Source of the DNA: Candidatus Kaiserbacteria bacterium
Lineage (GTDB): Bacteria > Patescibacteriota > Minisyncoccia > Phycocordibacterales > UBA918
Reading direction: 5' to 3'
Assembly: GCA_016699245.1 (NCBI GenBank)
Contig: CP064968.1
Span: 448,317 to 512,316, forward strand
Length of the DNA stretch: 64,000 nucleotides
Below the pieces are notes generated by a model. That model saw nothing but the letters and a program-made list of their open reading frames with translations, was not told the DNA's origin and did not search any database. This document shows, piece after piece, positions 20,883 to 63,617 of the stretch (its first letter is position 1; every line of letters begins with the position of its first letter). Made by a program: the position numbers and the translations under genes.

Positions 20883-21015
20883 GAAAATCCCCTATGTCAA
20901 AGGCGCTGGGGATTATATTTTGAGACCAGGACGGGATTTGAGTCCTACAGACTCCGTTCAGGTTGTAAGATATTTTTTAAAAATATTAACAACCTCTTCA
21001 AATCCCTTGGTCAAG

Positions 21016-21045
21016 AAAAAAACTCCACAGAGTGGAGTTTTTTAC
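21016..21045 (+). terminator. intrinsic terminator of infB-rbfA
   Basis: AAAAACTCCAC-AGA-GTGGAGTTTTTT. Confidence 0.7.
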
Positions 21046-21048
21046 TTG

Positions 21049-21120
21049 AGACCAGGACGGGATTTGAACCCGTGAATGTCGGTTTTGCAGACCGATGCGT
21101 TACCGCTTCGCCACCTGGTC
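21049..21120 (-). tRNA. tRNA-Cys (GCA)
   Basis: Hand-folded cloverleaf: acceptor GACCAGG/CCTGGTC, anticodon loop CTGCAAA, T-arm ACGGGTTCAAATCCCGT. Confidence 0.8.
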
Positions 21121-22798: not shown

Positions 22799-22871
22799 CC
22801 GCCCATAGCTCAGCTGGTAGAGCAGATCGCTCTTAACGATAAGGTCCCAGGTTCGATCCCTGGTGGGCGGA
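22799..22871 (+). tRNA. tRNA-Lys (CTT)
   Basis: Acceptor CCGCCCA/TGGGCGG, D-arm AGCTCAGCTGGTAGAGC, loop CTCTTAA, T-arm CCAGGTTCGATCCCTGG. Confidence 0.7.
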
Positions 22872-22918
22872 CTAATTTAAAAAACCACACAATTTTGTGT
22901 GGTTTTTTAAATTAGTCC
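22869..22918. terminator. 23-bp-arm perfect palindrome right after tRNA-Lys (GGACTAATTTAAAAAACCACACA / TGTGTGGTTTTTTAAATTAGTCC)
   Basis: Read directly; second short hairpin GCGAGCAA-TTTGTT-TTGCTCGC follows at 22923-22945. Confidence 0.65.
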
Positions 22919-22945
22919 GCCCAAGCGAGCAATTTGTTTTGCTCG

Positions 22946-23115
22946 CGGCCAGGGATCGAAAACCTTGCGAGGGATTTTGCGAGTGATAACGAAGCAAAAT
23001 ACCCACAAGGCAAAAACGATTCGTTTTTGAAGGTTGTCGAAATTTGTCAAAATTTCCTACAACCTAAACGGAATCTGTAAGATTTACTGGTCATGTAATG
23101 ACCGATTCCCTGGTG
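22946..23115 (+). repeat. structured repeat element family, copy A (core hairpin 23030-23064; CTGTAAG hairpin at 23069-23083)
   Basis: Closing inverted repeat GGCCAGGGATCG...CGATTCCCTGGTGG; about 90 nt roughly 97% identical to copy B. Confidence 0.6.
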
Positions 23116-23258
23116 GTACGCAATGAAAGAAAATACTAAGAGACTCGTAACGACAAATATACCCAAAATGTACGAAGTGAATAATTATAGTTAGTAATCT
23201 GTGAAGACTAATGATCTCTGTACGCAATGAAGGAAAATACTAAGAAACTCGTGGCGTC
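23115..23258 (+). repeat. two 39-nt direct repeats (23115-23153 and 23220-23258) upstream of tRNA-Leu(CAG)
   Basis: GTACGCAATGAARGAAAATACTAAGARACTCGT...; possible operator duplicate. Confidence 0.4.
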
Positions 23259-23287
23259 TTCAACACCCCTACAGTCTATGCTAAAAT
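23259..23287 (+). promoter_or_regulatory. sigma-70-like promoter of tRNA-Leu(CAG): TTCAAC-N17-TAAAAT
   Basis: -10 ends 10 nt before the tRNA 5' end. Confidence 0.5.
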
Positions 23288-23297
23288 CTCCTCTGTT

Positions 23298-23379
23298 GGG
23301 CGTATGGCGAAATTGGTAGACGCGCACGGTTCAGGTCCGTGAGCCGCAAGGCATGGAAGTTCGAGTCTTCTTACGCCCA
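23298..23379 (+). tRNA. tRNA-Leu (CAG), long variable arm
   Basis: Acceptor GGGCGTA/TACGCCC, anticodon stem CACGG/CCGTG, loop TTCAGGT. Confidence 0.75.
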
Positions 23380-23380
23380 C

Positions 23381-23425
23381 AAAATAACTAATCCTCAGAT
23401 ACTTCTGAGGATTAGTTATTTTTGG
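23381..23425 (+). terminator. terminator hairpin AACTAATCCTCAGA-TACTT-CTGAGGATTAGTT plus T-run
   Basis: Read directly. Confidence 0.7.
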
Positions 23426-23640
23426 TAGAAGACTCGAAGACCTTGTGAGAGATTTTGCGAGTCTCAGTTGCCGGCAGGCAGATGAGACGAAGTAAAATAT
23501 CCACAAGGCAAAAACGATTTGTTTTTGAAGGTTGTCGAAATTTGTCAAAATTTCATACAACCTAAACGGAATCTGTAAGATTTACTGAAACTGTGCCGCG
23601 TTCCAGTGAACGAAAAGTTTCAAGTCCTCTCGCGCCCACC
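23425..23640 (+). repeat. structured repeat element family, copy B (core 23529-23563), ending in a tRNA 3'-end-like GTTTCAAGTCCTCTCGCGCCCAC
   Basis: Begins with antisense of the tRNA-Leu(CAG) T-arm (GTAGAAGACTCGAAGACC); tail CTGTGCCGCGTTCCAGTGAACGAAAAG shared with the 46.7 kb copy. Confidence 0.6.
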
Positions 23641-23646
23641 CTTATA

Positions 23647-23680
23647 AAATCCCCCAAGCGCTTCGCGATTGGGGGATTTT
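23647..23680 (+). terminator. hairpin AAATCCCCCAA-GCGCTTCGCG-ATTGGGGGATTTT
   Basis: Read directly. Confidence 0.6.
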
Positions 23681-23732
23681 GATTCCCTACCCATATTCGA
23701 GAAGAAAAAATAACCTTAAAACACATTTTACC

Positions 23733-23776
23733 AAACTTACCGTATATGTAACACCTGTTACATATACGGTAAGTTT
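23733..23776. repeat. 44-bp perfect palindrome with non-palindromic CC centre (AAACTTACCGTATATGTAACA-CC-TGTTACATATACGGTAAGTTT); related copy at 55726-55763
   Basis: Immediately 3' of trhO stop; could be a terminator, operator or serine-recombinase att-like site. Confidence 0.6.
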
Positions 23777-23782
23777 GATTTC

Positions 23783-28174: not shown

Positions 28175-28531
28175 TTAGAGGGCTCCTGCTGTCTGTTGTA
28201 TCACATCCACAATAATCTTAGCACCGAGGACTATCACACCGCCAACCACTGCCCACAGAAGCGCGGTGCGTGCTTCGGTTACTTTACCAGGGTTACCCTG
28301 TGCAGTCACAAAGAGATACCCTGCGTACATGATGTAGAGAATTATGAGCGGGAGTGCAAAGACGAGGAGGATATCGATAATATTAAGCAAAAACTCCGGA
28401 ATATCTTTTGCTTTAAGCCAATTAATAAATTTTCCATCGTCAGCAAACACAGCGTGCGGTATGTAAAGTGCACTCAATATACATGTATATGTATACAGAC
28501 ATTTTTTCATATTGTTTGGCATGGATGTCAT
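28175..28531 (-). CDS. VirB2/TrbC-like pilin paralog 4
   Basis: C-terminal ~80 aa differ by only 3 residues from paralog 5; N-terminal ~40 aa unrelated. Confidence 0.5.
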   Translation of the reverse strand: MTSMPNNMKKCLYTYTCILSALYIPHAVFADDGKFINWLKAKDIPEFLLNIIDILLVFALPLIILYIMYAGYLFVTAQGNPGKVTEARTALLWAVVGGVIVLGAKIIVDVIQQTAGAL

Positions 28532-28548
28532 GTACGCTATTATTAAAT

Positions 28549-28902
28549 TTACAACGCACGCGCTGTCTGTTGTATCACATCCACAATAATCTTAGCAGCA
28601 AGCACAATCACGCCACCAACCACTGCCCACAGGAGAGCGGTGCGTGCCTCCGTTACTTTACCAGGGTTACCCTGTGCAGTCACAAAGAGATATCCTGCAT
28701 ACATGATATAGAGAATTATGAGCGGGAGCGCGAAAACGAGGAGAATGTCAATGATTTTAAGCAAGAACTCAGGGATGGTCTTTGAACTCAGCGGATTAGT
28801 CAGGGTAGCACCTTGAGCAAAGGTCACAAAAGGTAGATATAAAGGGCTAAGTGTAAATACTCGAATTACATATTTATGTATTTTTGTAGATATAGGCGAC
28901 AT
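28549..28902 (-). CDS. VirB2/TrbC-like pilin paralog 5
   Basis: As paralog 4. Confidence 0.5.
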   Translation of the reverse strand: MSPISTKIHKYVIRVFTLSPLYLPFVTFAQGATLTNPLSSKTIPEFLLKIIDILLVFALPLIILYIMYAGYLFVTAQGNPGKVTEARTALLWAVVGGVIVLAAKIIVDVIQQTARAL

Positions 28903-30233: not shown

Positions 30234-30971
30234 CTATTTCTTATGACAAAGGAGACCGTAGTGGTGGTCACCTGCGGAAAATGTACCTTCACAGGAAAAA
30301 CCTGCCTGCTCAAGAAGACTTCGAGCATCAGTCTCACTAAAAACATCTTCAGGGCGAGGACCAAGACCACCAAATGAATCCGTCCAATCAATGACGAATA
30401 ATTTTCCACCTTTTCGGAGTACGCGCGCCACTTCGGTGAGTGCAGTATCTTTACGGACAAACTGGAAAAGAATGTTTGAAAGAAGACCTGCATCGAGGGT
30501 ACCATCGTTGAATTTTGTACCGCCTGGAGCTTCAATATCGCACCACACAGGTCGTATGTTATTGAGACGCTGCTCTGCTGCTTTGGTACCAAGAGCGTCA
30601 ACAAGATTTTTTTGAATCTCACATGCGTACACTATGCCACTTAAGCCTACGGCACTTGAAAGAGGCTTTAAATATGCTCCACTACCCGCGCCAAAATCTG
30701 CGACGACATCACCTTCCCGCAAATGGAAATGGGTAACGGTATTCTCTGGGTCTACAAACCTTCCAAGTTGGGTAGGATACATATGTACAGTATACAGGGT
30801 CGCAGGGATATCGGTATGGGCAGTAGTGGAAAATGAGCCGGAACTGCAAAGCAGTTCTGGCTCATTTTCACACACTCCCAAACGCGCAGCGCTGAGGAAA
30901 TTTGCTTGACTCCCAAACTTTCCAAAATTGATTGAGTACAAGGTGAGAAGCGAATACTTGGAGCTTCGCAA
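30234..30971 (-). CDS. class I SAM-dependent methyltransferase (true start may be the internal Met near 30782)
   Basis: VADFGAGSGAY motif I; 5' end of the ORF overlaps a repeat element. Confidence 0.65.
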   Translation of the reverse strand: MRSSKYSLLTLYSINFGKFGSQANFLSAARLGVCENEPELLCSSGSFSTTAHTDIPATLYTVHMYPTQLGRFVDPENTVTHFHLREGDVVADFGAGSGAYLKPLSSAVGLSGIVYACEIQKNLVDALGTKAAEQRLNNIRPVWCDIEAPGGTKFNDGTLDAGLLSNILFQFVRKDTALTEVARVLRKGGKLFVIDWTDSFGGLGPRPEDVFSETDARSLLEQAGFSCEGTFSAGDHHYGLLCHKK

Positions 30972-31150
30972 GAGGTTGTCGATATTTTATAAAAATATCA
31001 TACAACCTGAACAGCGACCGTAGGTCGGGCAAGAAAATGAAGACGAGGCGTGAGAAAGTCTGGGAGACTTTCGCAAGACCTTGAACAGTTTCTGTGAAAG
31101 GTTTACCGTCTCTGTAAGAGACAGATGTACGATGAGTCTTCATTTTTGCA
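30942..31150 (+). repeat. structured repeat element family, copy C (core 30973-31008; CTGTAAG hairpin at 31102-31117)
   Basis: GGTGAGAAGCGA lead-in, then the core module, then TTCGCAAGACCTTGAACAG; same modules as the 63.1 kb copy but in swapped order. Confidence 0.6.
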
Positions 31151-43642: not shown

Positions 43643-43720
43643 GAAACAGCGAGGCGGGATCGCGAACACTTAGTAGATTTTGAACGTAGTGAAAAAATAT
43701 ACTTAGTGATTTGTGATCGG
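43643..43720 (+). repeat. ~80-nt repeat (CAGCGAGGCGGGATCGCGAACACTTAGTAGATTTT...ACTTAGTGA) homologous to 63535-63617
   Basis: Two copies with a GCGAGGCGGGRTCG core and paired CTTAGTA...ACTTAG segments; both in gene 3' regions. Confidence 0.5.
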
Positions 43721-46665: not shown

Positions 46666-46696
46666 TATATCATAGCATGGAGGGTGTGATGGACTG

Positions 46697-46840
46697 GACG
46701 CGAGAGGGGGGATTCGAATCTTTTCGTTCACTGGAACGCGGCACAGATTCTGTTCAGGTTGTATGATAGTTTCTCCTTGCAGTCGAAACTTTCGACAACC
46801 TTTTCGAATCCCCCGCGTAAGCTCCCCCGGAGCTTACTCT
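46697..46840 (-). repeat. structured repeat element family, copy D (inverted; core 46756-46801) bounded by a 12-bp inverted repeat GGGGGATTCGAA/TTCGAATCCCCC and ending in a tRNA 3'-end-like TCCCCCCTCTCGCGTCCA
   Basis: Shares the CTGTGCCGCGTTCCAGTGAACGAAAAG tail with copy B. Confidence 0.6.
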
Positions 46841-46980
46841 CTTCCGCCAACAAAATATGCCCCTTGCGGGGCTATTTTGTATTGGCAGGCATCGTAGGTT
46901 CAGTATCAGAGCGGTGAGATGATGTAAGGATATTTGAGGATTGTTTTAAGAGTTGAAATGAGGTATGTGGGTTGGAGTAT

Positions 46981-47830: not shown

Positions 47831-47964
47831 TAAGTTCTATTGGCGGAAGAGGGGGGATTCGTCCTGACGGTCACTAATTCGCTGACGCTCATAAGTGCCG
47901 CGGGACACGACTCGCCGGCCCAGAGGGGCCCCGGCTCCGTCGTTCGAATCCCCCCTCTTCTCGC
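47831..47964. repeat. inverted-repeat element with arms copied from the tRNA-Ser 3' end: TGGCGGAAGAGGGGGGATTCG...(84 nt GC-rich)...CGAATCCCCCCTCTTCTCGC
   Basis: 16-bp perfect arms at 47836-47851 and 47945-47960; the left arm is the exact complement of an acceptor/T-stem 3' end plus CCA (primer-binding-site-like). Confidence 0.6.
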
Positions 47965-48008
47965 AACATGCAACAAACCCAATGCTTTCGCATTGGGTTT
48001 GGCAGTTG

Positions 48009-48095
48009 CGGAAGAGGGGGGATTTGAACCCCCGATCGAGTCTCCCCGATGCCGGTTTTCGAAACCGGTGCACTAAACCACTATGCGACTCTTCC
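48009..48095 (-). tRNA. tRNA-Ser (CGA), long variable arm
   Basis: Acceptor GGAAGAG/CTCTTCC, anticodon stem CCGGT/ACCGG, loop TTCGAAA, T-arm GGGGGTTCAAATCCCCC; terminator hairpin at 47970-48000. Confidence 0.75.
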
Positions 48096-48386
48096 AAATG
48101 TATGAACTATTAAACTAGCATTTTTTCCAATTTTTCGGTAGTATAGCGAGGTTCGGATTGTATTGTCCCTTACTAGGACGAACGAGGTGTCATGTAGGAG
48201 TTTTACTCATACTTGCACCGAGTGACGTCCTAGCAAGCTCTGCTTGCAGGGACTGTACACCTTGTCGATATTTTTCTTCAGCTCACGCCTTGAAAAATAT
48301 CAGGCAAGGTCTTGCGAAAGTCCCCCAGACTTTCTCACCCATCGTCATCGACGATGTGGCCGTACAAAATTCAAAGAATTTCGTCC

Positions 48387-48603
48387 GGCCCCATCGTCTA
48401 ACGGTGGCCAGAAATTAAAGAGCGCAAGCGATTATAATTTCTGAGTGGCCTAGAAGTTACTGAGCGCAAGCGACAATAACTTCTGGTCTGCCTACTTTTT
48501 CTTTCAAAATGAAAAAGTAGGCCAAGTCACTTTTTCTTCTTCCCAGAAGAAAAAGTGACGCACACGGCAAGACTAAAACTACAATGATGCAAAAGGTACA
48601 TAC
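48387..48603 (+). repeat. tRNA-Glu 5' fragment (19 nt, 48387-48405) followed by a four-hairpin cassette (48409-48443, 48452-48484, 48490-48522, 48526-48558)
   Basis: GGCCCCATCGTCTAACGGT is identical to tRNA-Glu nt 1-19; hairpins 1-2 carry GAGCGCAAGCGA loops; hairpins 3-4 have 12-15-bp stems. Confidence 0.6.
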
Positions 48604-48675
48604 GGCCCCATCGTCTAACGGTTAGGACATCAGGTTTTCATCCTGGAAATCGGAGTTCGATTCTCCGTGGGGTCA
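48604..48675 (+). tRNA. tRNA-Glu (TTC)
   Basis: Acceptor GGCCCCA/TGGGGTC, anticodon stem TCAGG/CCTGG, loop TTTTCAT, T-arm CGGAGTTCGATTCTCCG. Confidence 0.7.
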
Positions 48676-50368
48676 CATCCAGAGATTTATCATCTCTATT
48701 CTCATCACTTACCTTGAAAAACAAGGATATTTTAGGTGTTCCACTAAGTACTTCTTTGTAGGTCGGAAACTCCAAGAATAGTATCTTGTAAATTGCCATC
48801 TGTTCGGCATAACTACTTATATCTAGGAACATATCTATAGGGTGTTCCATTAGATTTTTTGAGTACTCTAAGAACAAGGTGACTTCTTCGTAACTCAACT
48901 CAATTTTCTTCCTTTCACCCTGCACTTGTCGTAAATCCATACTTAGTCTTTCAAAATCCCTCTCCATCTCGTCTTTCACCAACTCAGAGTTTGATTTCTT
49001 GATTGCAGTCAGCGTTTCTCTCAGTTCAGATTGGATTCCTGTGATTCTCTGGTTTATTACAATTTGAGTATCAAGCGATTTCTCCTGTTCTTGTTTATGT
49101 TTATGAGTAAGGACTTTTTTTAAGATAGAATGGTACTTATCACTAAACTTAATTTTACTCAAAAAGGTCATCATTGCCTTATCAACCTCACTTTGAGGTT
49201 TCCCGTAATATTTATGTGTACGGCTACAATGATAAAAAGAATATTTCTCCTTATTTTTGCTTGTCGATGGACTTGCTAAAAAAGGTTTTTTACAGACATC
49301 GCACAAGACTACATTCTTAAACAGGTAATCTTTACGGAACTTCTGTCTTCTCTTGAGTATTTTCTCAGGGTTTAAGTCGTAAAAGAGTTTGATTTTGTTT
49401 TCTGGTAATTCCTCAACATACACTTTGCCCTTGTTGGCTTGATTAAACTTCTCGATGCTAACCAATCCCTTGTATTGGGTCTTTGTGATTATTTTCTTTT
49501 TTTGAATCTTGCCCCAATTCTCAATATTGACTCCGCAGTAGATAGGATTTTTCCTGTACTTCTGCATTTGCTTGATTGTAAGTTTATTGCCTACTTTTAC
49601 ACCGATTATTCTTTTGTCACCCTTTTTTCCATTCCAAAGTTTCCTATCTCTTGATTTGTAGCCAAGCGAGTTTATGTGGTCTACGATTTCTTGTTCTGTT
49701 AAAACTCCCTCAACGGTTTTATCAAAAAGAGCAATGATTTGAGGTGCTTCCTGCTCGTGTGGAAGTTGTATTGTTTTTTGCTTTCCGTCATTAGCAAGAA
49801 TAACGACATTTTTATAACCATAATTAGCTTCTCTTAACTTGAAGCCAAGACTAGCTCTTGAGAAGCTCGTGTTTACAGTTCTAGTAAGGATATTTGCAAC
49901 ATCTTCTTTGCCCATCTCTGCAAGCAGTATTTCAGTGATACGACTTGGGCTCTTATTACTCCAATCAAAGGAAATGCCAAGATGTTCAAGAGTGTTTGAT
50001 ATTGGCTGGATTATATTTTGACTATCACGAAGTTCAACACCAAGACTTGCTAATTGGCTTTTTATTAAAAGATATTCTTCACTACCAGAGCGAGTACTCC
50101 TATCAATCCTGTTTATAACAAAATACTTTATTTTGTTAGGATTTTTCTTAATTAAATCAATCAGTTCATTATATTTTGGTCTTTTTGCTACTTCAACTTT
50201 TCTACCAGTAAAGATTTCTCTACTTACTTTCCCATCAGGAAAAAGAGTCCAGTGATTATTCTCGATATGACGCTCAATAGCTTTTATTTGATTCTCTAAG
50301 CCGTCACCCTTAAGCTGACTAGGGTCACTGATTCGAGCATATCCAATTGCGTAGATGGGATGGGTCAT
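48638..50368 (-). CDS. large serine recombinase (phage-type integrase)
   Basis: N-terminal YARISDPSQ catalytic Ser motif, recombinase domain, zinc ribbon CDVCKK...YHCSRT, coiled coil; last 13 codons are antisense to the tRNA-Glu T-arm. Confidence 0.85.
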   Translation of the reverse strand: MTHPIYAIGYARISDPSQLKGDGLENQIKAIERHIENNHWTLFPDGKVSREIFTGRKVEVAKRPKYNELIDLIKKNPNKIKYFVINRIDRSTRSGSEEYLLIKSQLASLGVELRDSQNIIQPISNTLEHLGISFDWSNKSPSRITEILLAEMGKEDVANILTRTVNTSFSRASLGFKLREANYGYKNVVILANDGKQKTIQLPHEQEAPQIIALFDKTVEGVLTEQEIVDHINSLGYKSRDRKLWNGKKGDKRIIGVKVGNKLTIKQMQKYRKNPIYCGVNIENWGKIQKKKIITKTQYKGLVSIEKFNQANKGKVYVEELPENKIKLFYDLNPEKILKRRQKFRKDYLFKNVVLCDVCKKPFLASPSTSKNKEKYSFYHCSRTHKYYGKPQSEVDKAMMTFLSKIKFSDKYHSILKKVLTHKHKQEQEKSLDTQIVINQRITGIQSELRETLTAIKKSNSELVKDEMERDFERLSMDLRQVQGERKKIELSYEEVTLFLEYSKNLMEHPIDMFLDISSYAEQMAIYKILFLEFPTYKEVLSGTPKISLFFKVSDENRDDKSLDVTPRRIELRFPG

Positions 50369-50597: not shown

Positions 50598-51347
50598 TTA
50601 ATCCAGTAAGTGCTTGTTTGCCTCAGCTATTGAACGAATGGAGCCATTACTTAGTTTATTCTTAAATAGTTTTTGAACAAACAAGCAGATGATTTTCTCT
50701 TTTGCTTCTACCGCACTATATCTGTAGATATCCTGTAGATTTCGCTCAAAACCAAGCTCGATTGCTTGTTTTTTAAGTTGTGTCATTTCAGTGAAATAAA
50801 GCGTGGTCACAACCTTGTCTCTAAGTTCGTATTTTTTAGGTTTTAGGTTTGGTAACTTCATTTTACCGAAAGTCTGCTCCTGCTTCTTGAGAATGTTTCT
50901 TGAGTTTTGAGCAATAAAATCCTTGAGATTTTTTATTGAATTATTTGTACCAAAACGGATATAGATACCTTTAGGCAAAGCAATATTATTTTTAGTGAAT
51001 CCGTTTGGTAAACTGAAGACTTCACATCCATAGATGTTAAAGATTTCTCGTGATTTTTCTAATGGATAACCATAGATGAAATACTCAGTCCAAAAGTCCA
51101 CAGAAGACTCGTCTTGGCTAATGAGCGTATCAAACAGCTCTGGATACTTAATGAGCAATTTCGCTCTGTAGAGTGCCATATTTTGGCATATACGATGTAT
51201 GTCGTGTTTAGTCAGGTCAATCTGTTCAGTTCTTAGTCCTCGACTTGGTAAGCCAGCCCTAATACGCAAAAAACCAGCGAGTTTTCTGTTTGCTGGTTTG
51301 TTTAATATCTGAAGAAAACCTGTAACTTGAGACTCAGCTTTTGACAT
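50598..51347 (-). CDS. hypothetical protein (249 aa), island cargo
   Basis: ORF track. Confidence 0.4.
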   Translation of the reverse strand: MSKAESQVTGFLQILNKPANRKLAGFLRIRAGLPSRGLRTEQIDLTKHDIHRICQNMALYRAKLLIKYPELFDTLISQDESSVDFWTEYFIYGYPLEKSREIFNIYGCEVFSLPNGFTKNNIALPKGIYIRFGTNNSIKNLKDFIAQNSRNILKKQEQTFGKMKLPNLKPKKYELRDKVVTTLYFTEMTQLKKQAIELGFERNLQDIYRYSAVEAKEKIICLFVQKLFKNKLSNGSIRSIAEANKHLLD

Positions 51348-51378
51348 ACTGATATTCTAACAGTTTCGGTCTCAAATC

Positions 51379-51537
51379 TTAATTCTGAAAAAATCTCAGA
51401 AAAAGAAAGATTATTTGAATGCCAATAAATAACACCGCCCCGCCAATGATTAGACCAGCAAAGCAAGCTGATAAGAAACCTATTATTTCAGCAAGATTAA
51501 AAAATGCCGTAACAATTTTGTGTGCAAGTGCTTCCAT
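51379..51537 (-). CDS. small hydrophobic protein (52 aa, 2 TM)
   Basis: Hand translation MEALAHKIVTAFFNLAEIIGFLSACFAGLIIGGAVLFIGIQIIFLFLRFFQN. Confidence 0.3.
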   Translation of the reverse strand: MEALAHKIVTAFFNLAEIIGFLSACFAGLIIGGAVLFIGIQIIFLFLRFFQN

Positions 51538-51539
51538 AT

Positions 51540-52475
51540 TTATCGCCAAAACATCAACTGCTTAAAAAAGCCAACCACTTTCTGCACAAAATCCTCTTGT
51601 GGTTGCTCTGGCGTAGGTATTTCTTCAACCACTGGAAGTTGAGTAACTGGAGTTGTTGTAGGAGCCACTAAAACCTCCGACAGTTCTTTTGGCTCAGGTG
51701 GAGCTATATCAGGCGTCACAAGTGGTTTTTGAGCTATTGCGGGTGATACCACTGACACCTCCTTTGGAAGCGACTCAAGATACTCATCGTGCTGTGCTGT
51801 ACCCTCCTTTCCGTTCGGGTATTTTTGGTAATACAGAACCGCAATTCTGTCAGAAATATCAGGTCTGCTCGCTTTTATTCTCCCAAAGAAGTCTCTGGCG
51901 TCTGCGAGGGATAGTGAATCCATATAGACAAATCCTTCGTAAATATCAGCATCAGTGAATACCTCAGGGGTACTGTATGACTCCATCTGCTCATCAAGGA
52001 GCTCTTGATATTCCTCAATCTGTGAGAGGTTTTGCTTTTGTAACTCTAGGATTTGCTGACGTAATTTTTCAGCCTCTTTCTCAGCTTTTGCAAGAGCAGA
52101 GACTTCTGACGAGTGCTCATCTTTCTCGTCTTCAAGTTCACTTATTTGGGCATCGTACTTTGCATCAATCTCAGCAAGCTTGGCATCGAGTTGATTCCCG
52201 ATACCATAGCTTCCGTACAGTCCCGTAACATATCGCTTCTCCGTATCACGCTCTGCTTCAAGTGCTTTAATACGAGCATTGATAGTATCGACTGAAACCT
52301 GAGGACTGTTTGCGATTTGTGCCTCAAGCGTTTGGAGTCGATACTCCAGAGCTGAGAGTGCTTCATTCTGCTTTATCCCTACATCAGCAGGGAGATAGTT
52401 GTAGTCGGTGGCGTGTGCTACTGAGAAAAGACATAGGAAAAGTAATGTCGATATTGAAAAGGTTGTTTTTTGCAT
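51540..52475 (-). CDS. secreted coiled-coil protein
   Basis: Start moved to MQKTTFSISTLLFLCLFSVAHA (signal peptide); long EAEK-rich coiled coil. Confidence 0.45.
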   Translation of the reverse strand: MQKTTFSISTLLFLCLFSVAHATDYNYLPADVGIKQNEALSALEYRLQTLEAQIANSPQVSVDTINARIKALEAERDTEKRYVTGLYGSYGIGNQLDAKLAEIDAKYDAQISELEDEKDEHSSEVSALAKAEKEAEKLRQQILELQKQNLSQIEEYQELLDEQMESYSTPEVFTDADIYEGFVYMDSLSLADARDFFGRIKASRPDISDRIAVLYYQKYPNGKEGTAQHDEYLESLPKEVSVVSPAIAQKPLVTPDIAPPEPKELSEVLVAPTTTPVTQLPVVEEIPTPEQPQEDFVQKVVGFFKQLMFWR

Positions 52476-52502
52476 AGGGATGGGTTTGCAATTTAGGCAG
52501 GA

Positions 52503-52610
52503 ACATAAAGCTCCCCGCCAGTGATGCCTTGCGACACCTGTACCTGTTTCCAGATACAACCCATCCCTGAGTGCTCTGACGAGGAGCTTTATATCAGGGA
52601 TGGGTTTTAT
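52503..52610 (-). promoter_or_regulatory. leader region with mutually exclusive hairpins (attenuator or riboswitch-like)
   Basis: AAAGCTCCCCGCCAG (52507-52521) pairs with CTGACGAGGAGCTTT (52576-52590); overlapping stem AACCCATCCCTGA (52557-52569) / TCAGGGATGGGTT (52595-52607). Confidence 0.35.
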
Positions 52611-52738
52611 TTGTACCGTATCTTGCCGAGGCAAGACCTTAGGTAACTATGTTGTGGCTGGTAATTTTATTTCATCTGTGGATTGATAATATCAAAAAAT
52701 CCCGCTATAGACCAGCTTATTTTCTGCTTTATTTTTTA

Positions 52739-53122
52739 CTACATACGCTCAATCACCCTATCTGCAATTGCACTGTAGTCAAATCCAAATGCTGGAAAAT
52801 CAGAAACTGGCTCTTTTTCAAAATGTGGGTCTAACGAGAAGTCTTTCTTGAACTTACGCTCAAGAAGCCACGCATTTGCTTTCCAGTCCTTTTCACCTGC
52901 TTTTTCTATTTTCTTCATCATCTTACGCTTGTACTCGATTGCTTTTTGACCCATCTGCTCCGAAAACTCCGATTTTGTACGCTTCCAATTACACAAAGTA
53001 TCCTCGTTAATACCAGCGAGCATAGAAGCATCTCTTTGAGTCATTCCATCACCTAGGGCTTCGAGAATGATTGCGACCCTCTCAGGGGTCATTTTATAGG
53101 GTTTAGGGGCTATGTCGTTCAT
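52739..53122 (-). CDS. HTH-domain protein (phage terminase small-subunit-like or regulator)
   Basis: MTPERVAIILEALGDGMTQRDASMLAGINEDTLCNW helix-turn-helix. Confidence 0.4.
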   Translation of the reverse strand: MNDIAPKPYKMTPERVAIILEALGDGMTQRDASMLAGINEDTLCNWKRTKSEFSEQMGQKAIEYKRKMMKKIEKAGEKDWKANAWLLERKFKKDFSLDPHFEKEPVSDFPAFGFDYSAIADRVIERM

Positions 53123-53217
53123 AGAGTAACCACTGGTTATCTGATAATGAACGATTTAGTTTTGGCTTACTTTTATTATAGCAAATACGACCTCAATAAT
53201 GTTAAACTTTAAGGGTT

Positions 53218-53802
53218 ATGGAAATTAAATTATTTTTTGGGATAGCATCATCTATTCTTGCTGTTGTGTGTTTCGCCCCTTACATAAGGGACATTTTGAA
53301 GCGAAAGACTGAGCCACATACATATTCGTGGCTTGTATGGACAATCTTGCAGACAGTTGGCGTTATGGCACAACTGAAAGAGGGTGCTGGATACGGGGCT
53401 TGGGCTCTTGGGATTGGTGCTGTATTTTGTTTTGCTATCTTCCTACTCTCTTTCAAATATGGAACAAAGAACATTTCAAAGTTTGATGGATTTTGTCTCC
53501 TCGCCTCACTCGTTGCTATCGTCATTTATTTCACTATTGAAAATCCTGTGTGGGCGATTATAGCTGTATCGCTCATAGACTTCGTAGGTTTTTTACCTAC
53601 TTTCCGAAAGGGTTATCAAGAGCCATTTACAGAGACAGCAAGCACTTTCTTAATGAGTGGAACTGCAAATGTTTTGAGTATTATTGCTCTCCAAAACTAT
53701 AATGTGACAACTGTCCTCTATATCGGAAGTCTCTTTTTCACAAATATGTCTTTTGTATTGATGATTGTAGCCAGAAGAAAGTTACTTAAAAAGTCCGTAT
53801 GA
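53218..53802 (+). CDS. hypothetical 6-TM membrane protein
   Basis: ORF track. Confidence 0.4.
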   Translation: MEIKLFFGIASSILAVVCFAPYIRDILKRKTEPHTYSWLVWTILQTVGVMAQLKEGAGYGAWALGIGAVFCFAIFLLSFKYGTKNISKFDGFCLLASLVAIVIYFTIENPVWAIIAVSLIDFVGFLPTFRKGYQEPFTETASTFLMSGTANVLSIIALQNYNVTTVLYIGSLFFTNMSFVLMIVARRKLLKKSV

Positions 53803-54122
53803 GTTCCTTAAACGTAAAGCTTGTTGTTTTTGTACCTCTTACACATACCGATATTGTGCGTACTGCTTTAGGTGAGGCTGGTGCTGGAAAAATTGGAAAC
53901 TATGATTTTTGCTCATTCTCCACAAGAGGAATTGGACGCTTTCAGGGTAACGAAAAAACAAATCCTAGTGTCGGTACAGCTGGAGTGTACGAGTCAGTGG
54001 AAGAAGACCGAATTGAAGTTTTAGTGCCTAGAGCAATTCTCAAAGATGTTATTGACAGAGTCAAAGCAGTACACCCTTATGAAGAAGTGGCTTTTGATAT
54101 TTATCCATTAGAAGACTTTTAA
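53799..54122 (+). CDS. NIF3-insert/YqfO-like small alpha/beta protein
   Basis: VKLVVFVP...HPYEEVAFDIYPL pattern; overlaps neighbours by 4 nt. Confidence 0.35.
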   Translation: MSSLNVKLVVFVPLTHTDIVRTALGEAGAGKIGNYDFCSFSTRGIGRFQGNEKTNPSVGTAGVYESVEEDRIEVLVPRAILKDVIDRVKAVHPYEEVAFDIYPLEDF

Positions 54123-54124
54123 CT

Positions 54125-55423
54125 ATGTCTGTATCACCATTAGATACAGCATATAATCGCCTAGACGAGGCACACAGAGCTTGGCACACTGCACTTGATG
54201 GTTATCATCGAATTGACGATTTTCGAGCTGGAATAAATACAGCAATTCAAGCACTCAGAAACCTCACTTTTGCACTCCAGAAGCAGAAAGATAACTTGCC
54301 TGACTTTGATATTTGGTACGCTGGTTGGCAAGAAAAAATGCGAGTCAATCCGATACTCAAAGAGCTTCACGAGGCTAGAAATGTCATTGTAAAACAGGAA
54401 GATTTGAAACTTCATAGTGTCGCCACCGCAAGAACAAAAGGTTGGATAGATTTTCAGAAAATGGCTTTTACTTTTGACCCAACTAAAGATAGCTATGATG
54501 TCGCACAAGGCTTCTACAATACTTTCGCAAGGCACTTGCCAGTTGCGGAGGAAATTAAAAGTAGGCTCGTATTTGAGTTTGAAAGAAAATGGGTCTATGA
54601 CAAATTACCTGAGTACGAACTACTCAATGCAATTACTCAGGCATACTATTTTTTCTCTGAAATGCTCGTTGATGCAAGTCAAAGATTTGCTTTACCACAA
54701 AGAGAAAATCATAGTACTGGAGACTATTGCTCTGGCGAGCTGAATGACAAAAATCTATTGAAATGTATGGTGCTTACGCAACAAGAGCGTTGCTTAATTT
54801 TTAGTTTTGAAGATGGAGCAACTATCAAGGCACATACTGAAAGTATTCAACGTGACTCTGTTCATCTTGATAAAGTCCGTGAAAAATATGGTGACGAGTG
54901 GAAATCAGAAGCAACCCTCTCCCTGTTAGATGGTTTATTTCCTACAGAGTACCCATTTTCTCAAATGAAGCTTTTTGCCCAAGTAGCAGTGAGTAATCTC
55001 AAAAAAGACAAATATCTTGTTCCTACTACTTTTATTTTTAAGGGAATTGACGATGTTCCTGTAGTTATAGCCCATCCATTTCAGAATCAGGAACAAAAAG
55101 TGATGACAATGGATTTGATTTCTAGTTCAATCATTAAGAATAATGGGAAGTTCGTGCTCACCATAGCTGAAGTTTGGCAGTATGATTTCAACGATGGAAA
55201 GCCACTGATACCAACTCACGAAAATACGAATGGGGCAAAAGATATATTTGATATTTCCTGCATTTCATCAGAAAAGTTAAAGGTGATACACATACCTTTC
55301 CACAAAAATATCTTCGGAAAAATCATATTTTCAGAACCTACAGTTGAAGATGTATCAACTGACGAACATACGCACTACATACTTCAGCCACTTATTGATG
55401 CACTCAAACAGGTTAGTAAGTAG
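54125..55423 (+). CDS. hypothetical protein (432 aa), island cargo
   Basis: ORF track; no recognisable motif. Confidence 0.4.
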   Translation: MSVSPLDTAYNRLDEAHRAWHTALDGYHRIDDFRAGINTAIQALRNLTFALQKQKDNLPDFDIWYAGWQEKMRVNPILKELHEARNVIVKQEDLKLHSVATARTKGWIDFQKMAFTFDPTKDSYDVAQGFYNTFARHLPVAEEIKSRLVFEFERKWVYDKLPEYELLNAITQAYYFFSEMLVDASQRFALPQRENHSTGDYCSGELNDKNLLKCMVLTQQERCLIFSFEDGATIKAHTESIQRDSVHLDKVREKYGDEWKSEATLSLLDGLFPTEYPFSQMKLFAQVAVSNLKKDKYLVPTTFIFKGIDDVPVVIAHPFQNQEQKVMTMDLISSSIIKNNGKFVLTIAEVWQYDFNDGKPLIPTHENTNGAKDIFDISCISSEKLKVIHIPFHKNIFGKIIFSEPTVEDVSTDEHTHYILQPLIDALKQVSK

Positions 55424-55725: not shown

Positions 55726-55763
55726 CTTACCGTATATTGTACACCTGTTACATATACGGTAAG
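55726..55763 (+). terminator. near-palindrome CTTACCGTATATTGTACA-CC-TGTTACATATACGGTAAG plus T-run; paralog of 23733-23776
   Basis: Read directly. Confidence 0.6.
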
Positions 55764-55821
55764 TGCTTTTTTAGTGCATAAAAAAATCCTGGGGTGCGCC
55801 CATGCACACATTACAACATTA

Positions 55822-56515: not shown

Positions 56516-56540
56516 GAAAACTACCTAGTTCATCAAAACC

Positions 56541-56578
56541 AAGGTTAAACCTCGGGCTAGCCCGAGGTTTAACCTTTT
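56541..56578 (+). terminator. 17-bp-stem palindrome AAGGTTAAACCTCGGG-CTAG-CCCGAGGTTTAACCTT plus T; identical copy at 59658-59697
   Basis: Read directly. Confidence 0.75.
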
Positions 56579-59657: not shown

Positions 59658-59697
59658 CCAAGGTTAAACCTCGGGCTAGCCCGAGGTTTAACCTTGG
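59658..59697. terminator. palindrome CCAAGGTTAAACCTCGGG-CTAG-CCCGAGGTTTAACCTTGG (copy of 56541-56576)
   Basis: Read directly. Confidence 0.75.
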
Positions 59698-59707
59698 TCT
59701 GGATATA

Positions 59708-61546
59708 CTACTCTGTCAAAAAGCCTCCGGCTTGATGTTCCCAGAGACGGGCGTAGGTGCCTCCAGCATTTGCGAGGGTTTCGTGAGTCCCATCTTCGAT
59801 AATAGCACCGTTTTCGAGGACGACAATTCTATCCATTTCGCGAAGTGTTGAAAGACGATGTGCAATCGCAATCACTGTCTTCCCTTTCATGAGTTCCTGC
59901 AGTGCCTTTTGTATTGCCACTTCGCTTTCACTATCAAGTGCACTCGTAGCCTCGTCGAGAATCAGTATTGGGGAGTTTTTTAAAATAGCCCGAGCAATCG
60001 CAATACGTTGCTTTTGCCCACCCGAGAGTTTCACCCCACGCTCACCCACCAGCGTGTCGTACCCCTCACTGATTGCTGAAATAAAGGTATGTGCCTGAGC
60101 CTTCTCTGCTGCGTTTTCTATTTCTTCTTGTGTAGCTTGGGGCTTGCCATACGCAATATTTTCGCGGATAGAACGGTGAAAGAGGAGTGGCTCCTGAGGC
60201 ACAATGGCGATGTGGTTGCGGAGTGAATCCTGTGTAATCATACTGATGTTTTGTCCATCAATACTGATATTTCCTTCTTGCACTTCGTGTTGACGAAGAA
60301 GAAGTGAGACAAGAGTGGTCTTGCCGGCGCCACTTGTACCCACAAGCCCCACCCGCTCGCCCGAGCGTATGGCGAGAGAAAAATCTTTAAATACCGGTTC
60401 ATTTCCATATGCAAAATGCACATGGTCGCACACTATTGCTCCTTCCCGCACAACAAGTGGCACTGCGCCTTCGGTATCGAGAATCTCGTGGGGCACGATG
60501 ATATCAGTAAGTCCTTCTTCAATTTCTGCATAGCGACGAATAAAACCGTTCATACTCATACCAATAAAGACCAAGGTACTCTGCACATTCATCATGAGTG
60601 TTGCAATCATAATGAGTTCACCCGTGGTGAGTTGTGTACTTATCCAAAGCTTCACCGATATAAAAAGCATCGCAGCCTCAAAGAGCACAATAATGGCATT
60701 ATTGAGCAAAAGCCCCCACTCACTGATGCGCCATTGTTTTATATTGAGACGACGCATCTCGTCGATATGCGCTTCAAAGGCGTTTTTTTCTTCATCCATC
60801 CGCACGTACTGGCGAATGGCGGCCATGTTGGAAATAGCATCCACGGCGTAGCCACGTGCTCTTGTTGCCTGTGCCGAAAACTCCACCACATGCGGGCGTC
60901 GAAGGCGCGCAAGCACGATATTGAGCGGCACGAGAATTACAATGAGTCCGATGAAGATAAAGGCGATAGTCGGACTCGAAAACCAGATAAATCCCACCGT
61001 AAAAATAAGTCCGAGAACTGAGGGGACGTAACTCCACATAAATGCCTCAAAAAGCGACTGTACCCCCTCACTCGCATGACTTATCTTGCTTGAGAGGGAG
61101 CCAGCAAATCGATCGGCAAAGTACGCGTGGCTGTGGTGCGCGAGGTACCCGAAGAGTGTCTTGTACGCAGTGGCGTTTGCGCGACTTGCCCACTCCATAC
61201 CAATAAAACCACTCAAGCGCCATGAGACAAATGTGAGTGCGGTCATGAGTGGAAAAAGAATCACCACGAGCCAGATGTCGGTCTGCACTGCTTCGCCGCG
61301 CCCTATCTCGCCCGCCGTATCAATAAACATCTTGAAAATATACGGAATACTCGTACCCGCGAGTTCCGCCACAAAAATCACGAGGAGTACACCAAAAAGC
61401 CACTTCGCGTGCGCGTGCGAGACATGCTTCATGAAAGCAAACGGCCGACTCAAAGCCAGCTTCATTTCTATTTCTTTCGTTTCGGTATGCATAATTATAT
61501 CTGACGTAGTATACCTGTCTTTCTTGCAAGAAAAAACCGGCGACAC
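59708..61546 (-). CDS. ABC transporter permease/ATP-binding fusion protein (MsbA-like exporter)
   Basis: 6-TM domain plus Walker A GTSGAGKTT, LSGGQ, Walker B ILILDEATS; the true start may be an internal Met. Confidence 0.85.
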   Translation of the reverse strand: MSPVFSCKKDRYTTSDIIMHTETKEIEMKLALSRPFAFMKHVSHAHAKWLFGVLLVIFVAELAGTSIPYIFKMFIDTAGEIGRGEAVQTDIWLVVILFPLMTALTFVSWRLSGFIGMEWASRANATAYKTLFGYLAHHSHAYFADRFAGSLSSKISHASEGVQSLFEAFMWSYVPSVLGLIFTVGFIWFSSPTIAFIFIGLIVILVPLNIVLARLRRPHVVEFSAQATRARGYAVDAISNMAAIRQYVRMDEEKNAFEAHIDEMRRLNIKQWRISEWGLLLNNAIIVLFEAAMLFISVKLWISTQLTTGELIMIATLMMNVQSTLVFIGMSMNGFIRRYAEIEEGLTDIIVPHEILDTEGAVPLVVREGAIVCDHVHFAYGNEPVFKDFSLAIRSGERVGLVGTSGAGKTTLVSLLLRQHEVQEGNISIDGQNISMITQDSLRNHIAIVPQEPLLFHRSIRENIAYGKPQATQEEIENAAEKAQAHTFISAISEGYDTLVGERGVKLSGGQKQRIAIARAILKNSPILILDEATSALDSESEVAIQKALQELMKGKTVIAIAHRLSTLREMDRIVVLENGAIIEDGTHETLANAGGTYARLWEHQAGGFLTE

Positions 61547-62981: not shown

Positions 62982-63109
62982 TATTTTCCCCTTTCCATAA
63001 GGAACTATAGAGTTTTATATTATGGCCTATATTAGTATATATGTCAACACTTGTTATGTGGCTTGTTTGCTTGTTTTTGTAGCGGGCTCACGTATACTTG
63101 TAGTTACCC

Positions 63110-63342
63110 GCGCGGTTAGCTCAGCTGGTAGAGTGAGAAATGGGTGAGAAGCGAGTTTACGCAGCTTCGCAAGACCTTGAGCAGTCTCTGCGAAAGGTGT
63201 ACAGCGACTGTAAGTCGGGGACCCATTTCGCAAGAGGTTGTCGATATTTTGACGTAAGGAAAAATATCATACAACCTGAACAGGTCCTGTTAAGGACTCA
63301 CATTGAGCGCAAAGGTGAGAAAAAGATACAAATGAATAGTAT
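63110..63342 (+). repeat. tRNA-Val 5' fragment (24 nt, 63110-63133) followed by repeat element copy E (core 63235-63277; CTGTAAG hairpin 63196-63208)
   Basis: GCGCGGTTAGCTCAGCTGGTAGAG is identical to tRNA-Val nt 1-24; then GGTGAGAAGCGAG, TTCGCAAGACCTTGAGCAG and core modules. Confidence 0.6.
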
Positions 63343-63415
63343 GCGCGGTTAGCTCAGCTGGTAGAGCATCACATTGACATTGTGGGGGTCACAGGTTCAA
63401 GTCCTGTATCGCGCA
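63343..63415 (+). tRNA. tRNA-Val (GAC)
   Basis: Acceptor GCGCGGT/ATCGCGC, anticodon stem TCACA/TGTGG, loop TTGACAT, T-arm ACAGGTTCAAGTCCTGT. Confidence 0.75.
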
Positions 63416-63423
63416 CCGAGGGA

Positions 63424-63468: not shown

Positions 63469-63534
63469 GAAGCAAAAGGCTTTGCTTCCGGACCTCGGTG
63501 CGAGCCACAGCGATGTTTTTCTTTCTCCTTGAAA

Positions 63535-63617
63535 GAAAAACCGCGAGGCGGGGTCGAGAGTGCTTAGTAAAATAAACACAAAGTGTTTGATTTTACTTAG
63601 CAACTCGTGACCACTGG
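63535..63617 (+). repeat. second copy of the GCGAGGCGGGRTCG / CTTAGTA...ACTTAG repeat (see 43643-43720)
   Basis: Alignable over ~80 nt with substitutions. Confidence 0.5.

Follow-up and report, generated by a model that had tools for sequence, protein, structure and literature searches.

We examined a 64,000-nt stretch of the genome of a Candidatus Kaiserbacteria bacterium, a member of the Patescibacteria or candidate phyla radiation (contig CP064968.1, positions 448,317 to 512,316; hereafter the window, with positions counted from its first nucleotide), in which a short repeat element, copy B, follows a tRNA-Leu(CAG) gene. ARAGORN finds eight tRNA genes in the window, five of them between positions 21048 and 23380. 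The window proteins are ordinary housekeeping ones, including IF-2, RbfA, GyrA, FtsA, FtsZ, ClpB and Pth. Copy B belongs to a family of non-coding cassettes of 100-220 nt, whose two ends are copies of tRNA 3' ends. We denote by X the tRNA segment from T54 (T-loop) to the discriminator, and by X' the reverse complement of X. The cassette unit then reads tRNA(...X) - hairpin - X' - UCGAAR - cargo - X - hairpin, where the cargo is either HP1-UGAAC-HP2 (HP1 and HP2 being two conserved hairpins) or another conserved module.

Upstream of tRNA-Leu(CAG) there is a promoter-like site (23260-23287), and a palindromic hairpin separates the gene from copy B (Table 1). The left end of copy B (23424-23442, GGTAGAAGACTCGAAGACC) is the X' arm and differs by small deletions from the reverse complement of tRNA-Leu(CAG). 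Aligned with the reverse-complemented 3' region of the gene (GTAAGAAGACTCGAACTTCC), positions 23425-23442 (GTAGAAGACTCGAAGACC) read GTA, a 1-nt deletion, and GAAGACTCGAA. This end had been described as the reverse complement of the T-arm of tRNA-Leu(CAG); it takes in the T-loop, the 3' strand of the T-stem and the start of the acceptor, but not the whole T-arm. X' has an A at the position of a G.U pair of tRNA-Leu(CAG). The cargo consists of a long hairpin (23441-23508), a further hairpin (23509-23527), HP1 (23529-23563) and HP2 (23569-23583), with a second HP2-like hairpin (23586-23623) extending into the distal X; a covariance model of the family matches it at 23524-23587 (E = 6e-14). The distal X (23617-23639, GTTTCAAGTCCTCTCGCGCCCAC) matches the 3' end of the window tRNA-Leu(UAG) at 88% over 24 nt, so that the near identity reported earlier for this end is borne out, and in a related genome the tRNA-Leu(CAG) is equally near to it (17/19). 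The X' of copy B is a mirror of the tRNA-Leu(CAG) now present, and the distal X resembles another Leu allele.

Matches of this kind are rare by chance. Allowing up to 4 mismatches in 20, a tRNA probe running from the T-loop to the acceptor finds four non-tRNA sites in the window where 0.21 would be expected. In gapped scans the sense arms of copy B (score 18) and of the cassettes following tRNA-Cys and tRNA-Ser score 17-20, the maximum in shuffled sequence being 11-13. The antisense arm of copy B taken singly scores 12, which is within the shuffle range (maximum 13); it is the top non-tRNA match in the 64 kb and lies exactly at the position that the layout predicts. Significance against shuffled controls was thus obtained for the sense arms but not for this antisense arm by itself, the antisense arms being significant at the level of the family (31 cases, own versus other tRNAs, p = 1.5e-11). 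At that level the observation is real and statistically solid.

The conserved core of the cassettes is GGUUGUCGA, a variable stem-loop and UCAUACAACCUGAAC (HP1), then a short hairpin with a YGUAA loop (HP2). A degenerate pattern of this core, run on a collection of species-representative genomes, yielded at least 120 loci. Among the matches listed, 118 of 120 loci are in genomes labelled Patescibacteria (Kaiserbacteria, Paceibacterota, Parcubacteria, Zambryskiibacteria and others), and individual genomes supply at least 10 loci in some cases. No match to the core pattern was found in IMG/VR, and on this ground a phage origin was rejected. In Rfam 15, searched at the gathering score and at E-values up to 5, the cassettes match no family, the window giving tRNAs and one LOOT RNA only, and assignment to a known RNA family was therefore rejected. 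Readings of HP1/HP2 as K-turn, hammerhead or group I/II intron were dropped; their internal loops and junctions do not fit what we take to be the consensus motifs of these RNAs, and Rfam agrees. A full-text literature search turned up no description of the cassettes, which, given incomplete coverage of the literature, is not proof of novelty; the family appears to be undescribed. The TIGR arrays (tandem interspaced guide RNAs) of parasitic bacteria, known from the same group, have a different architecture, with repeats of 8-12 nt alternating with 9-nt spacers, or box C/D stem-loops, beside a Nop-domain Tas gene (PMC12045711). They were rejected as an identity for the cassettes, whose units are hairpin modules of 65-90 nt with no box C/D, no spacers and no Nop-domain match in the window.

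The family is closely tied to tRNA genes. Of 137 cores, 66 have a tRNA gene no more than 400 nt away, 53 on the same strand and 13 on the opposite one. The core follows the tRNA in 31 cases, and at least 17 isoacceptors are represented. In these 31 cases the distal arm aligns with the last 24 nt of its own tRNA with a local score of 16.0, compared with 7.1 for other tRNAs (p = 2e-15), and the proximal arm aligns with the reverse complement of its own tRNA with a score of 9.8, compared with 6.5. The onset of the distal copy falls within -4 to +3 nt of T54 in all 25 alignable cases, and between C56 and the end 11 of the copies are identical (18/18). The last base of X' is in every case the complement of T54; 1-2 purines and then the cargo come after it, independently of the cargo type. 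The junction sequence is that of the tRNA T-loop (TTCRA/TYGAA), and in the subfamily with tRNA arms the HP2 stem itself employs T54-C56. The termini are therefore real copies of tRNA 3' ends, as the preliminary description had supposed. Of the 94 tRNA genes that have sufficient flanking sequence in the fetched loci and the window, 49 are accompanied by a partial self-copy (2.8 in permutations), a biased, upper estimate as these loci were chosen for the core; X recurs directly downstream in 29 instances and inverted in 13, and the 5' 16 nt recur directly upstream in 19.

The proximal arm is a copy of the 3' strand of the tRNA. The informative positions are those at which the acceptor or T stem of the tRNA contains a G.U pair or a mismatch; at all 14 of them X' bears the complement of the 3'-strand base, and at none the 5'-strand base of the tRNA. 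X' is thus an inverted duplication of the 3' end and not the decayed 5' half of a second tRNA, and a pseudo-tRNA whose 5' arm would be the 5' strands of acceptor and T-stem was rejected for the same reason. Among cassettes whose two X copies differ at two or more positions, X' lies nearer the tRNA-side copy 8 times and nearer the distal one twice, with 3 ties. The typical flaw of X' is at the acceptor/T-stem junction, where a few bases are deleted or a small hairpin is inserted. The duplicated block is of variable length (16-60 nt) and reaches into the hairpins of terminators and into 5' leaders, neither of which belongs to a mature tRNA.

At least three cargo families occupy one X'/X scaffold: the HP1-HP2 core, a variant GACCUUG...CAAGGUGUAC (HP1') and a GC-rich type, M2. 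The scaffold is also present without the canonical core at 19 further tRNAs. The cargo hairpins covary: in HP2, 18 of 30 sequences alter both sides of a pair yet keep pairing, the upper stem of HP1 varies on both sides in the same way, and the seemingly invariant lower stem of HP1 has GGUCGU/ACGACC variants under a relaxed pattern. A third hairpin, HP0 (GUGAGA, a stem with a UGGGA-type loop, CGCAAGA), precedes modules that lie far from tRNAs, sometimes in tandem arrays. The module occurs, too, inside partial 5' tRNA copies upstream of an intact gene, for instance at tRNA-Val (63108-63302), and in antisense within partial 3' copies (loci L031 and L039 of the collection). The HP0-type, 5'-copy and antisense versions have neither an inverted arm nor the closing helix in which the ends of the cassettes pair. 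For HP0 modules the flanking duplex is -5.6 kcal/mol, compared with -5.2 in permutations (p = 0.26), and a closing helix as a general property of the module was accordingly rejected. Cores away from tRNAs display no orientation bias relative to neighbouring genes (28 vs 21; 19 vs 20).

Two observations on related modules may be added. M2 elements, reading GAGCC.AGCGAUGUUUU-hairpin-AAACCGCGAGG.GGGGUCG.GAGUGCUUA, lie downstream of tRNA genes (63476-63580 in the window; L037, 400-470; L110; L022) and have no match in Rfam; a GC-rich relative is the cargo at tRNA-Ser (47843-47964) and in L059, L097, L034, L050 and L117. On short contigs (L026, L045, L092 and L107, from genome CAZADB01) tandem HP0-HP1 units of about 86 nt continue up to the contig ends, which suggests long arrays that break assembly.

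Within the window the cassette order recurs at four further sites, after tRNA-Lys, tRNA-Cys and tRNA-Ser and at one place without a tRNA (copy D). A covariance model built from 30 copies detects six strong and three diverged cores. In copy A the palindrome (22864-22923) has perfect 29-nt arms (100%) and takes in 9 nt of tRNA-Lys; X' (22917-22961) is split by a small hairpin (22924-22946) and followed by the cargo (22962-23103) and the distal X (23104-23119). The cargo of copy B is 96% identical to that of copy A over 101 nt. This central block lies between conserved junction sequences and the arms derive from different tRNAs, which looks like the result of gene conversion between the copies. 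The minimal copy after tRNA-Cys has a hairpin (21011-21049), X' (20998-21012), an HP1-HP2 core (20936-21000; covariance-model E = 8e-16), a distal X (20921-20942) identical to tRNA-Cys at 18 of 18 positions, and a second hairpin (20883-20920). Copy D comprises a hairpin (46852-46880), an acceptor-like segment (46837-46848), a small hairpin (46818-46836), an inner X' (46803-46817) and the core (46715-46806); its distal X (46695-46720, minus strand) is Ser-like and terminates in ...GAATCCCCCCTCTCGCGTCCA, the tRNA-end sequence attributed to it before. The recurrence of the architecture claimed for 47831-47964 was recovered as an inverted repeat of the tRNA-Ser 3' end spanning 47843-47964 (scores 17 and 18), in which X' (47941-47964) and X (47843-47864) enclose a different cargo of the GC-rich M2 type, next to a hairpin (47969-48000). 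At tRNA-Val a variant lies on the 5' side: positions 63108-63135 are a partial copy of the tRNA-Val 5' end (acceptor and D arm), followed by a diverged module (63169-63222) and a canonical one (63230-63302).

Table 1. Cassettes, modules and associated features in the 64,000-nt window
Feature	Position	Strand	Remarks
Minimal copy after tRNA-Cys (21048-21120, -)	20883-21049	-	
Copy A, after tRNA-Lys(CTT) (22799-22872)	22864-23119	+	
tRNA-Leu(CAG)	23298-23380	+	ARAGORN and Rfam tRNA; 3' end X mirrored by left arm of copy B
Palindromic hairpin between tRNA-Leu(CAG) and copy B	23381-23422	+	Perfect 19-nt arms; terminator-like
Copy B, whole element	23424-23639	+	
Copy B, X'	23424-23442	+	Imperfect reverse complement of T-loop, 3' T-stem strand and acceptor start of tRNA-Leu(CAG)
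Copy B, cargo	23441-23616	+	RNA fold z = -6.2
Copy B, distal X	23617-23639	+	Sense copy of a tRNA-Leu-type 3' end, from the T-loop through the 3' T stem and the acceptor 3' strand to the discriminator
Second hairpin, 3' of the distal X of copy B	23646-23680	+	Terminator-like
Two tandem HP0-HP1-HP2 modules, no tRNA nearby	30930-31145	+	Canonical core 30968-31032; diverged core 31073-31126
Copy D, no adjoining tRNA	46695-46880	-	
Cassette after tRNA-Ser(CGA) (48008-48095, -)	47843-48000	-	Fold z = -6.8
Diverged HP0-HP1'-HP2 module upstream of tRNA-Ser	48235-48349	-	Covariance-model E = 0.005
5'-side variant before intact tRNA-Val (63343-63417)	63108-63302	+	

The window also holds other repeats and open reading frames (ORFs). 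A conserved motif of some 33 nt, GYACGCAATGAARGAAAATACTAAGARACTCGT, occurs at 23116-23148, 23220-23252 and 43682-43714, as well as in L020, L034, L037 and L115; two of its occurrences lie between copy A and the tRNA-Leu(CAG) promoter, and in related genomes it adjoins cassettes. Within the tRNA cluster, between tRNA-Leu(UAG) and tRNA-Leu(UAA), the segment 21347-22434 (minus strand) holds ORFs of 89 and 268 aa with no Pfam match. At 48386-48493, upstream of the intact tRNA-Glu gene, a 19-nt copy of the tRNA-Glu 5' end precedes two 42-nt hairpin repeats (GAAATTA...CAGAGCGCAAGCGA...TAATTTC), a family also found in L023 and L090. Tandem repeats at 12-971 (366 nt, three copies, 73-75% identity) and at 28175-28821 (374 nt, two copies, 82%) probably fall inside paralogous small ORFs or span them. 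Finally, inverted repeats of 51 nt (56526-56576 and 59660-59710, 92% complementary), each with a perfect palindrome (CCAAGGTTAAACCTCGGGCT and AGCCCGAGGTTTAACCTTGG), enclose about 3.1 kb with a sigma-70 factor gene and a pyruvate kinase gene.

Orthologous sites are found empty, filled and with swapped cargo. Only one hairpin lies downstream of the window tRNA-Val; its orthologue in L002 and L110 is the second hairpin, and there a hairpin - X' - core - X block intervenes. Downstream of tRNA-Lys(CTT) there is a hairpin alone in L100, an M2 element in L037 and copy A in the window, all three states upstream of one conserved motif. At the tRNA-Cys of L037 the hairpin and X' are kept, and a deletion between two GGGATTT repeats has removed the core and distal X. 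L100, L116, L037 and L097 have tandem units; the arrays are same-oriented, and the distal copy keeps the original terminator. A separate kind of duplication is seen upstream of tRNA-Cys, where pseudo-tRNA-Cys copies lie in L037 (2500-2650) and L100 (7360-7440) and the window has the empty form. These copies consist of the acceptor 5' strand, an altered D arm whose loop is replaced by a long hairpin with a UGGG-type loop, and a mutated anticodon arm; a 26-nt leader is duplicated with them.

All five window cassettes are predicted to fold with paired termini around a multi-branch centre (z = -3.9 to -7.6). In 20 aligned copies the closing helix is 94% paired and six of eight pairs have changes on both sides, a covariation that is partly circular since this set was picked for complementarity. 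A check proposed earlier was whether the ends pair into an acceptor/T-arm minihelix. They do pair, but the T-loop pairs with its complement in every fold and the ends make one long closing helix instead. On the element strand G.U exceeds A.C in HP2 (68 vs 38), in the upper stem of HP1 (35 vs 19) and in the closing helix (24 vs 16); as a strand test of RNA against DNA this mild bias was set aside, for a folded DNA strand would give the same. The cassettes are not recognised by ARAGORN or by the Rfam tRNA and tmRNA models (E up to 5). No promoter-like site was found before copies A or B. A simple terminator scan does not call the post-tRNA hairpins terminators, and it misses the hairpin between tRNA-Leu(CAG) and copy B because the T-run sits within the stem; we infer that these hairpins are terminators.

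The search for a linked protein was negative. The 1,660 ORFs from the 120 loci cluster into housekeeping families only, the largest present in 10 loci, and an associated protein was rejected as no family is enriched beside the cassettes. The window encodes no tyrosine integrase, IntI/XerCD-type, Nop-domain or reverse transcriptase gene, and reverse transcriptases are not enriched in the flanks of cassette loci. The sole window recombinase is a serine recombinase of 576 aa with a Resolvase N-terminal domain (48638-50368, minus strand), whose ORF ends inside the 3' end of tRNA-Glu (48604-48676). Past it lie ORFs with no Pfam match (50598-55423) and the LOOT RNA (52523-52645, minus strand; RF03000, 74.7 bits). 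The tRNA-Glu region looks like a genuine integrated element, distinct from the small cassettes. A perfect palindrome with 22-nt arms just past copy B (23732-23777) has a relative of 84-87% similarity at 55726-55764, 32 kb off and near the far side of this putative element.

The reading that we favour, tentatively and at somewhat less than an even chance, is that the cassettes are small non-autonomous elements that insert at the T-loop, supply a replacement 3' end and displace the original one. A block X - hairpin - X' - cargo would enter by recombination at the start of the T-loop, equipping the tRNA with another 3' end and another terminator; the ones it had before would shift downstream and become the distal X. 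Through the X/X' palindrome a single strand of the element, either a transcript or a circle of excised DNA, would be able to form a rod with paired ends. Position-specific insertion is suggested because the T54 junction is precise in all cargo families, the cargo is swappable, arrays occur and X' is nearer to the tRNA-side X.

Several points weigh against this reading. Neither inside nor beside the cassettes is there a recombinase gene, and the 780 kb of flanks show no enrichment of one; the window serine recombinase was rejected as the cassette enzyme, having no homologue in the other 120 loci. A cassette bearing a given X could target only its own tRNA, so that the presence at 17 or more isoacceptors would need many lineages or arms re-copied for each target. 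Once circularised, a cassette would not have T-stem-like sequence immediately 5' of T54, and for this reason the standard core site of tyrosine recombinases is missing. Secondary deletion from one X copy to the other could also have produced the empty sites, and L037 offers an example of such a deletion. The partial 5'-end copies and antisense insertions lack the inverted arm and need a separate account. The frequency of self-copying tRNA genes carries the selection bias noted above.

Known mobile elements provide partial parallels. Insertion of tRNA-targeting integrative elements (tyrosine-integrase islands, prophages and CIME-type derivatives of these, which are non-autonomous) leaves the gene restored by the incoming DNA, with the far end marked by a displaced 3' fragment. 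The cassettes share with them the direct repeat from the loop to the 3' end, the intact tRNA on one side, the displaced 3' fragment and tandem accretion at one tRNA. Unlike them, they are only 100-220 nt long, gene-less and without an associated integrase, occupy many tRNAs per genome, and bear an inverted copy of the attachment segment beside a palindromic hairpin. The general idea of the preliminary description, that the elements arise from or target tRNA 3' ends, is right, and neither of the mechanisms it named is established. Serial capture of integrase attachment sites agrees with the T-loop-to-3'-end direct repeat, the tandem arrays and the distal copy with its original terminator, but not with the inverted copy, the small size and the missing integrase. 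The order X - loop - X' - cargo - X, with the topology derived from the published mechanism, is that of integron attC and of CTX-phage attP(+); by analogy, the cassettes would fit integration of a single-stranded circle through a folded palindrome. An imperfect boundary palindrome with irregularities at fixed positions, swappable cargo and same-oriented arrays are likewise shared. In contrast to these two systems, no IntI/Xer-type gene, attI or GTTRRRY/RYYYAAC core is found near the cassettes, whose cargo is a structured non-coding module instead of an ORF; the palindrome copies the target tRNA, which makes each cassette target-specific, and the duplex ends exactly at the crossover. Like REP/BIME, Correia, RUP, Rickettsia palindromic elements and MITEs, the cassettes are short, non-coding, intergenic, present by the dozen in small genomes and near terminators, with covarying conserved hairpins and copies that recombine. 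Unlike in these repeats, the inverted repeats are copied from the local tRNA and differ from site to site, the tie to tRNAs is strong, and the short target-site duplication of fixed length seen with MITEs is replaced by the block of 16-60 nt.

An enzyme-free origin, by template switching during replication at strong palindromes and conserved tRNA boxes, is a serious contender even if we hold it to be unlikely. A fork would stall at the base of the T-arm or D-arm, the nascent strand would copy a structured module of another locus through T-loop or D-arm microhomology and, returning behind the stall, would recopy the outer part of the gene; an intact tRNA would always be left and the terminator palindrome would act as pivot for the inverted copy. 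Many features are as expected from such events: junctions lie at stem bases and at both of the universally conserved tRNA boxes (T54; the D-arm end GGTAGAG|; 60/61 on the other strand), 3'-side and 5'-side partial copies both exist and the intact gene is always retained, the duplicated blocks reach outward by differing amounts into leader and terminator sequence, the hairpins that follow tRNAs are long and perfectly palindromic (up to 29 nt per arm, 100%), X' follows X across the hairpin, the central block shared by copies A and B with its conserved junctions is what gene conversion would leave, and no associated protein is found. The left junction, on the other hand, is nucleotide-precise over three cargo families and many tRNAs and looks site-specific, the order X - hairpin - X' - cargo - X needs two to three ordered switches, and the use of T54-C56 in the HP2 stem of the tRNA-arm subfamily suggests a coherent, selected design. 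Copying by reverse transcription, primed by a tRNA or by a hairpin, would make X' resemble a primer-binding site and the cassettes retro-copies of tRNA or pre-tRNA. Primer-binding sites of retroelements are complementary to about 18 nt of a tRNA 3' end including CCA; X' does complement about 20 nt of it, the duplicated blocks stay within the extent of a primary transcript, from leader to terminator, and self-priming of X' synthesis from a terminator hairpin whose 3' end is paired is conceivable in principle. But a consistent CCA complement is missing, as is a reverse transcriptase in the window or enriched in the flanks; the cassettes always adjoin the very gene they copy, which a retro-copy has no reason to do, and terminators are co-duplicated; the stop of retroviral reverse transcriptase on tRNA is m1A58, and T54 is not a known stop; and 3'-end priming cannot yield the partial 5' copies. 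The tRNA-primed copying proposed earlier is, on these grounds together with the duplicated leaders, the least credible of the explanations, and we give it very little weight.

Selection on an RNA, which we regard as improbable, would turn the argument around: the cassette would be co-transcribed with the tRNA, the X'/X helix would imitate stacked acceptor and T stems with the discriminator of the tRNA itself, and RNase P, 3' trimming and CCA addition would release a stable cargo RNA, local duplication being the raw material whose pairing selection keeps. The strand bias next to tRNAs (53 vs 13), the termini paired in all folds, the closing-helix covariation (in the set selected for pairing), the distal X often identical through the discriminator and followed by a hairpin, the small hairpins that break X' at the acceptor/T-stem junction like the D and anticodon arms of a tRNA, and the excess of G.U in HP2 and upper HP1 all speak for it. 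Its predicted layout also recalls the tmRNA tRNA-like domain, viral 3' tRNA-like structures and the tRNA-miRNA units of gammaherpesviruses, with paired ends of acceptor and T-stem sequence, a discriminator end and cargo between; unlike in these, the helix simply repeats the 3' strand in inverted form, and the T-loop is paired, leaving no tRNA elbow. Further evidence is adverse. X' tracks the tRNA-side X and not its presumed pairing partner (8 vs 2), the strand test on the closing helix is weak, HP0 modules have no such helix, cores away from tRNAs have no preferred orientation, a terminator-like hairpin stands between tRNA and cassette with no promoter-like site before copies A or B, the tRNA and tmRNA models do not see the cassettes, and some cargos are antisense to the tRNA. 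Insertion and RNA function might also be combined in a dedicated cassette system of Patescibacteria, a long shot in our estimation. Circles of 100-220 nt, single-stranded rods of DNA, or of RNA passing through a DNA copy, would carry a palindromic copy of the tRNA end and integrate at T54 through a folded site, as integron cassettes and CTX phage do, building arrays of interchangeable structured RNAs that would be freed by the tRNA-processing machinery.

Bacteria belonging to the candidate phyla radiation have tiny genomes with about one gene per tRNA. About half of the tRNA genes in the loci examined here carry partial copies of themselves wrapped round conserved structured modules. If the cassettes are mobile, they would be a new and very small kind of element targeting tRNA genes, with an attachment site copied from the target and folded into a palindrome, and they would bear on site-specific insertion without a resident recombinase gene. 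If they are RNAs, they would amount to a large group of structured non-coding RNAs so far missing from annotation, in a lineage with almost none known, and a natural counterpart of the "tRNA scaffold" trick of RNA engineering. Should the dedicated system prove true, it would add both a new architecture of mobile elements and a new route of small-RNA expression in the most reduced bacteria known. Either way, the cassettes account for contig breaks and rearrangements of tRNA clusters in these metagenome-assembled genomes, and provide at least three new candidate RNA families for Rfam.

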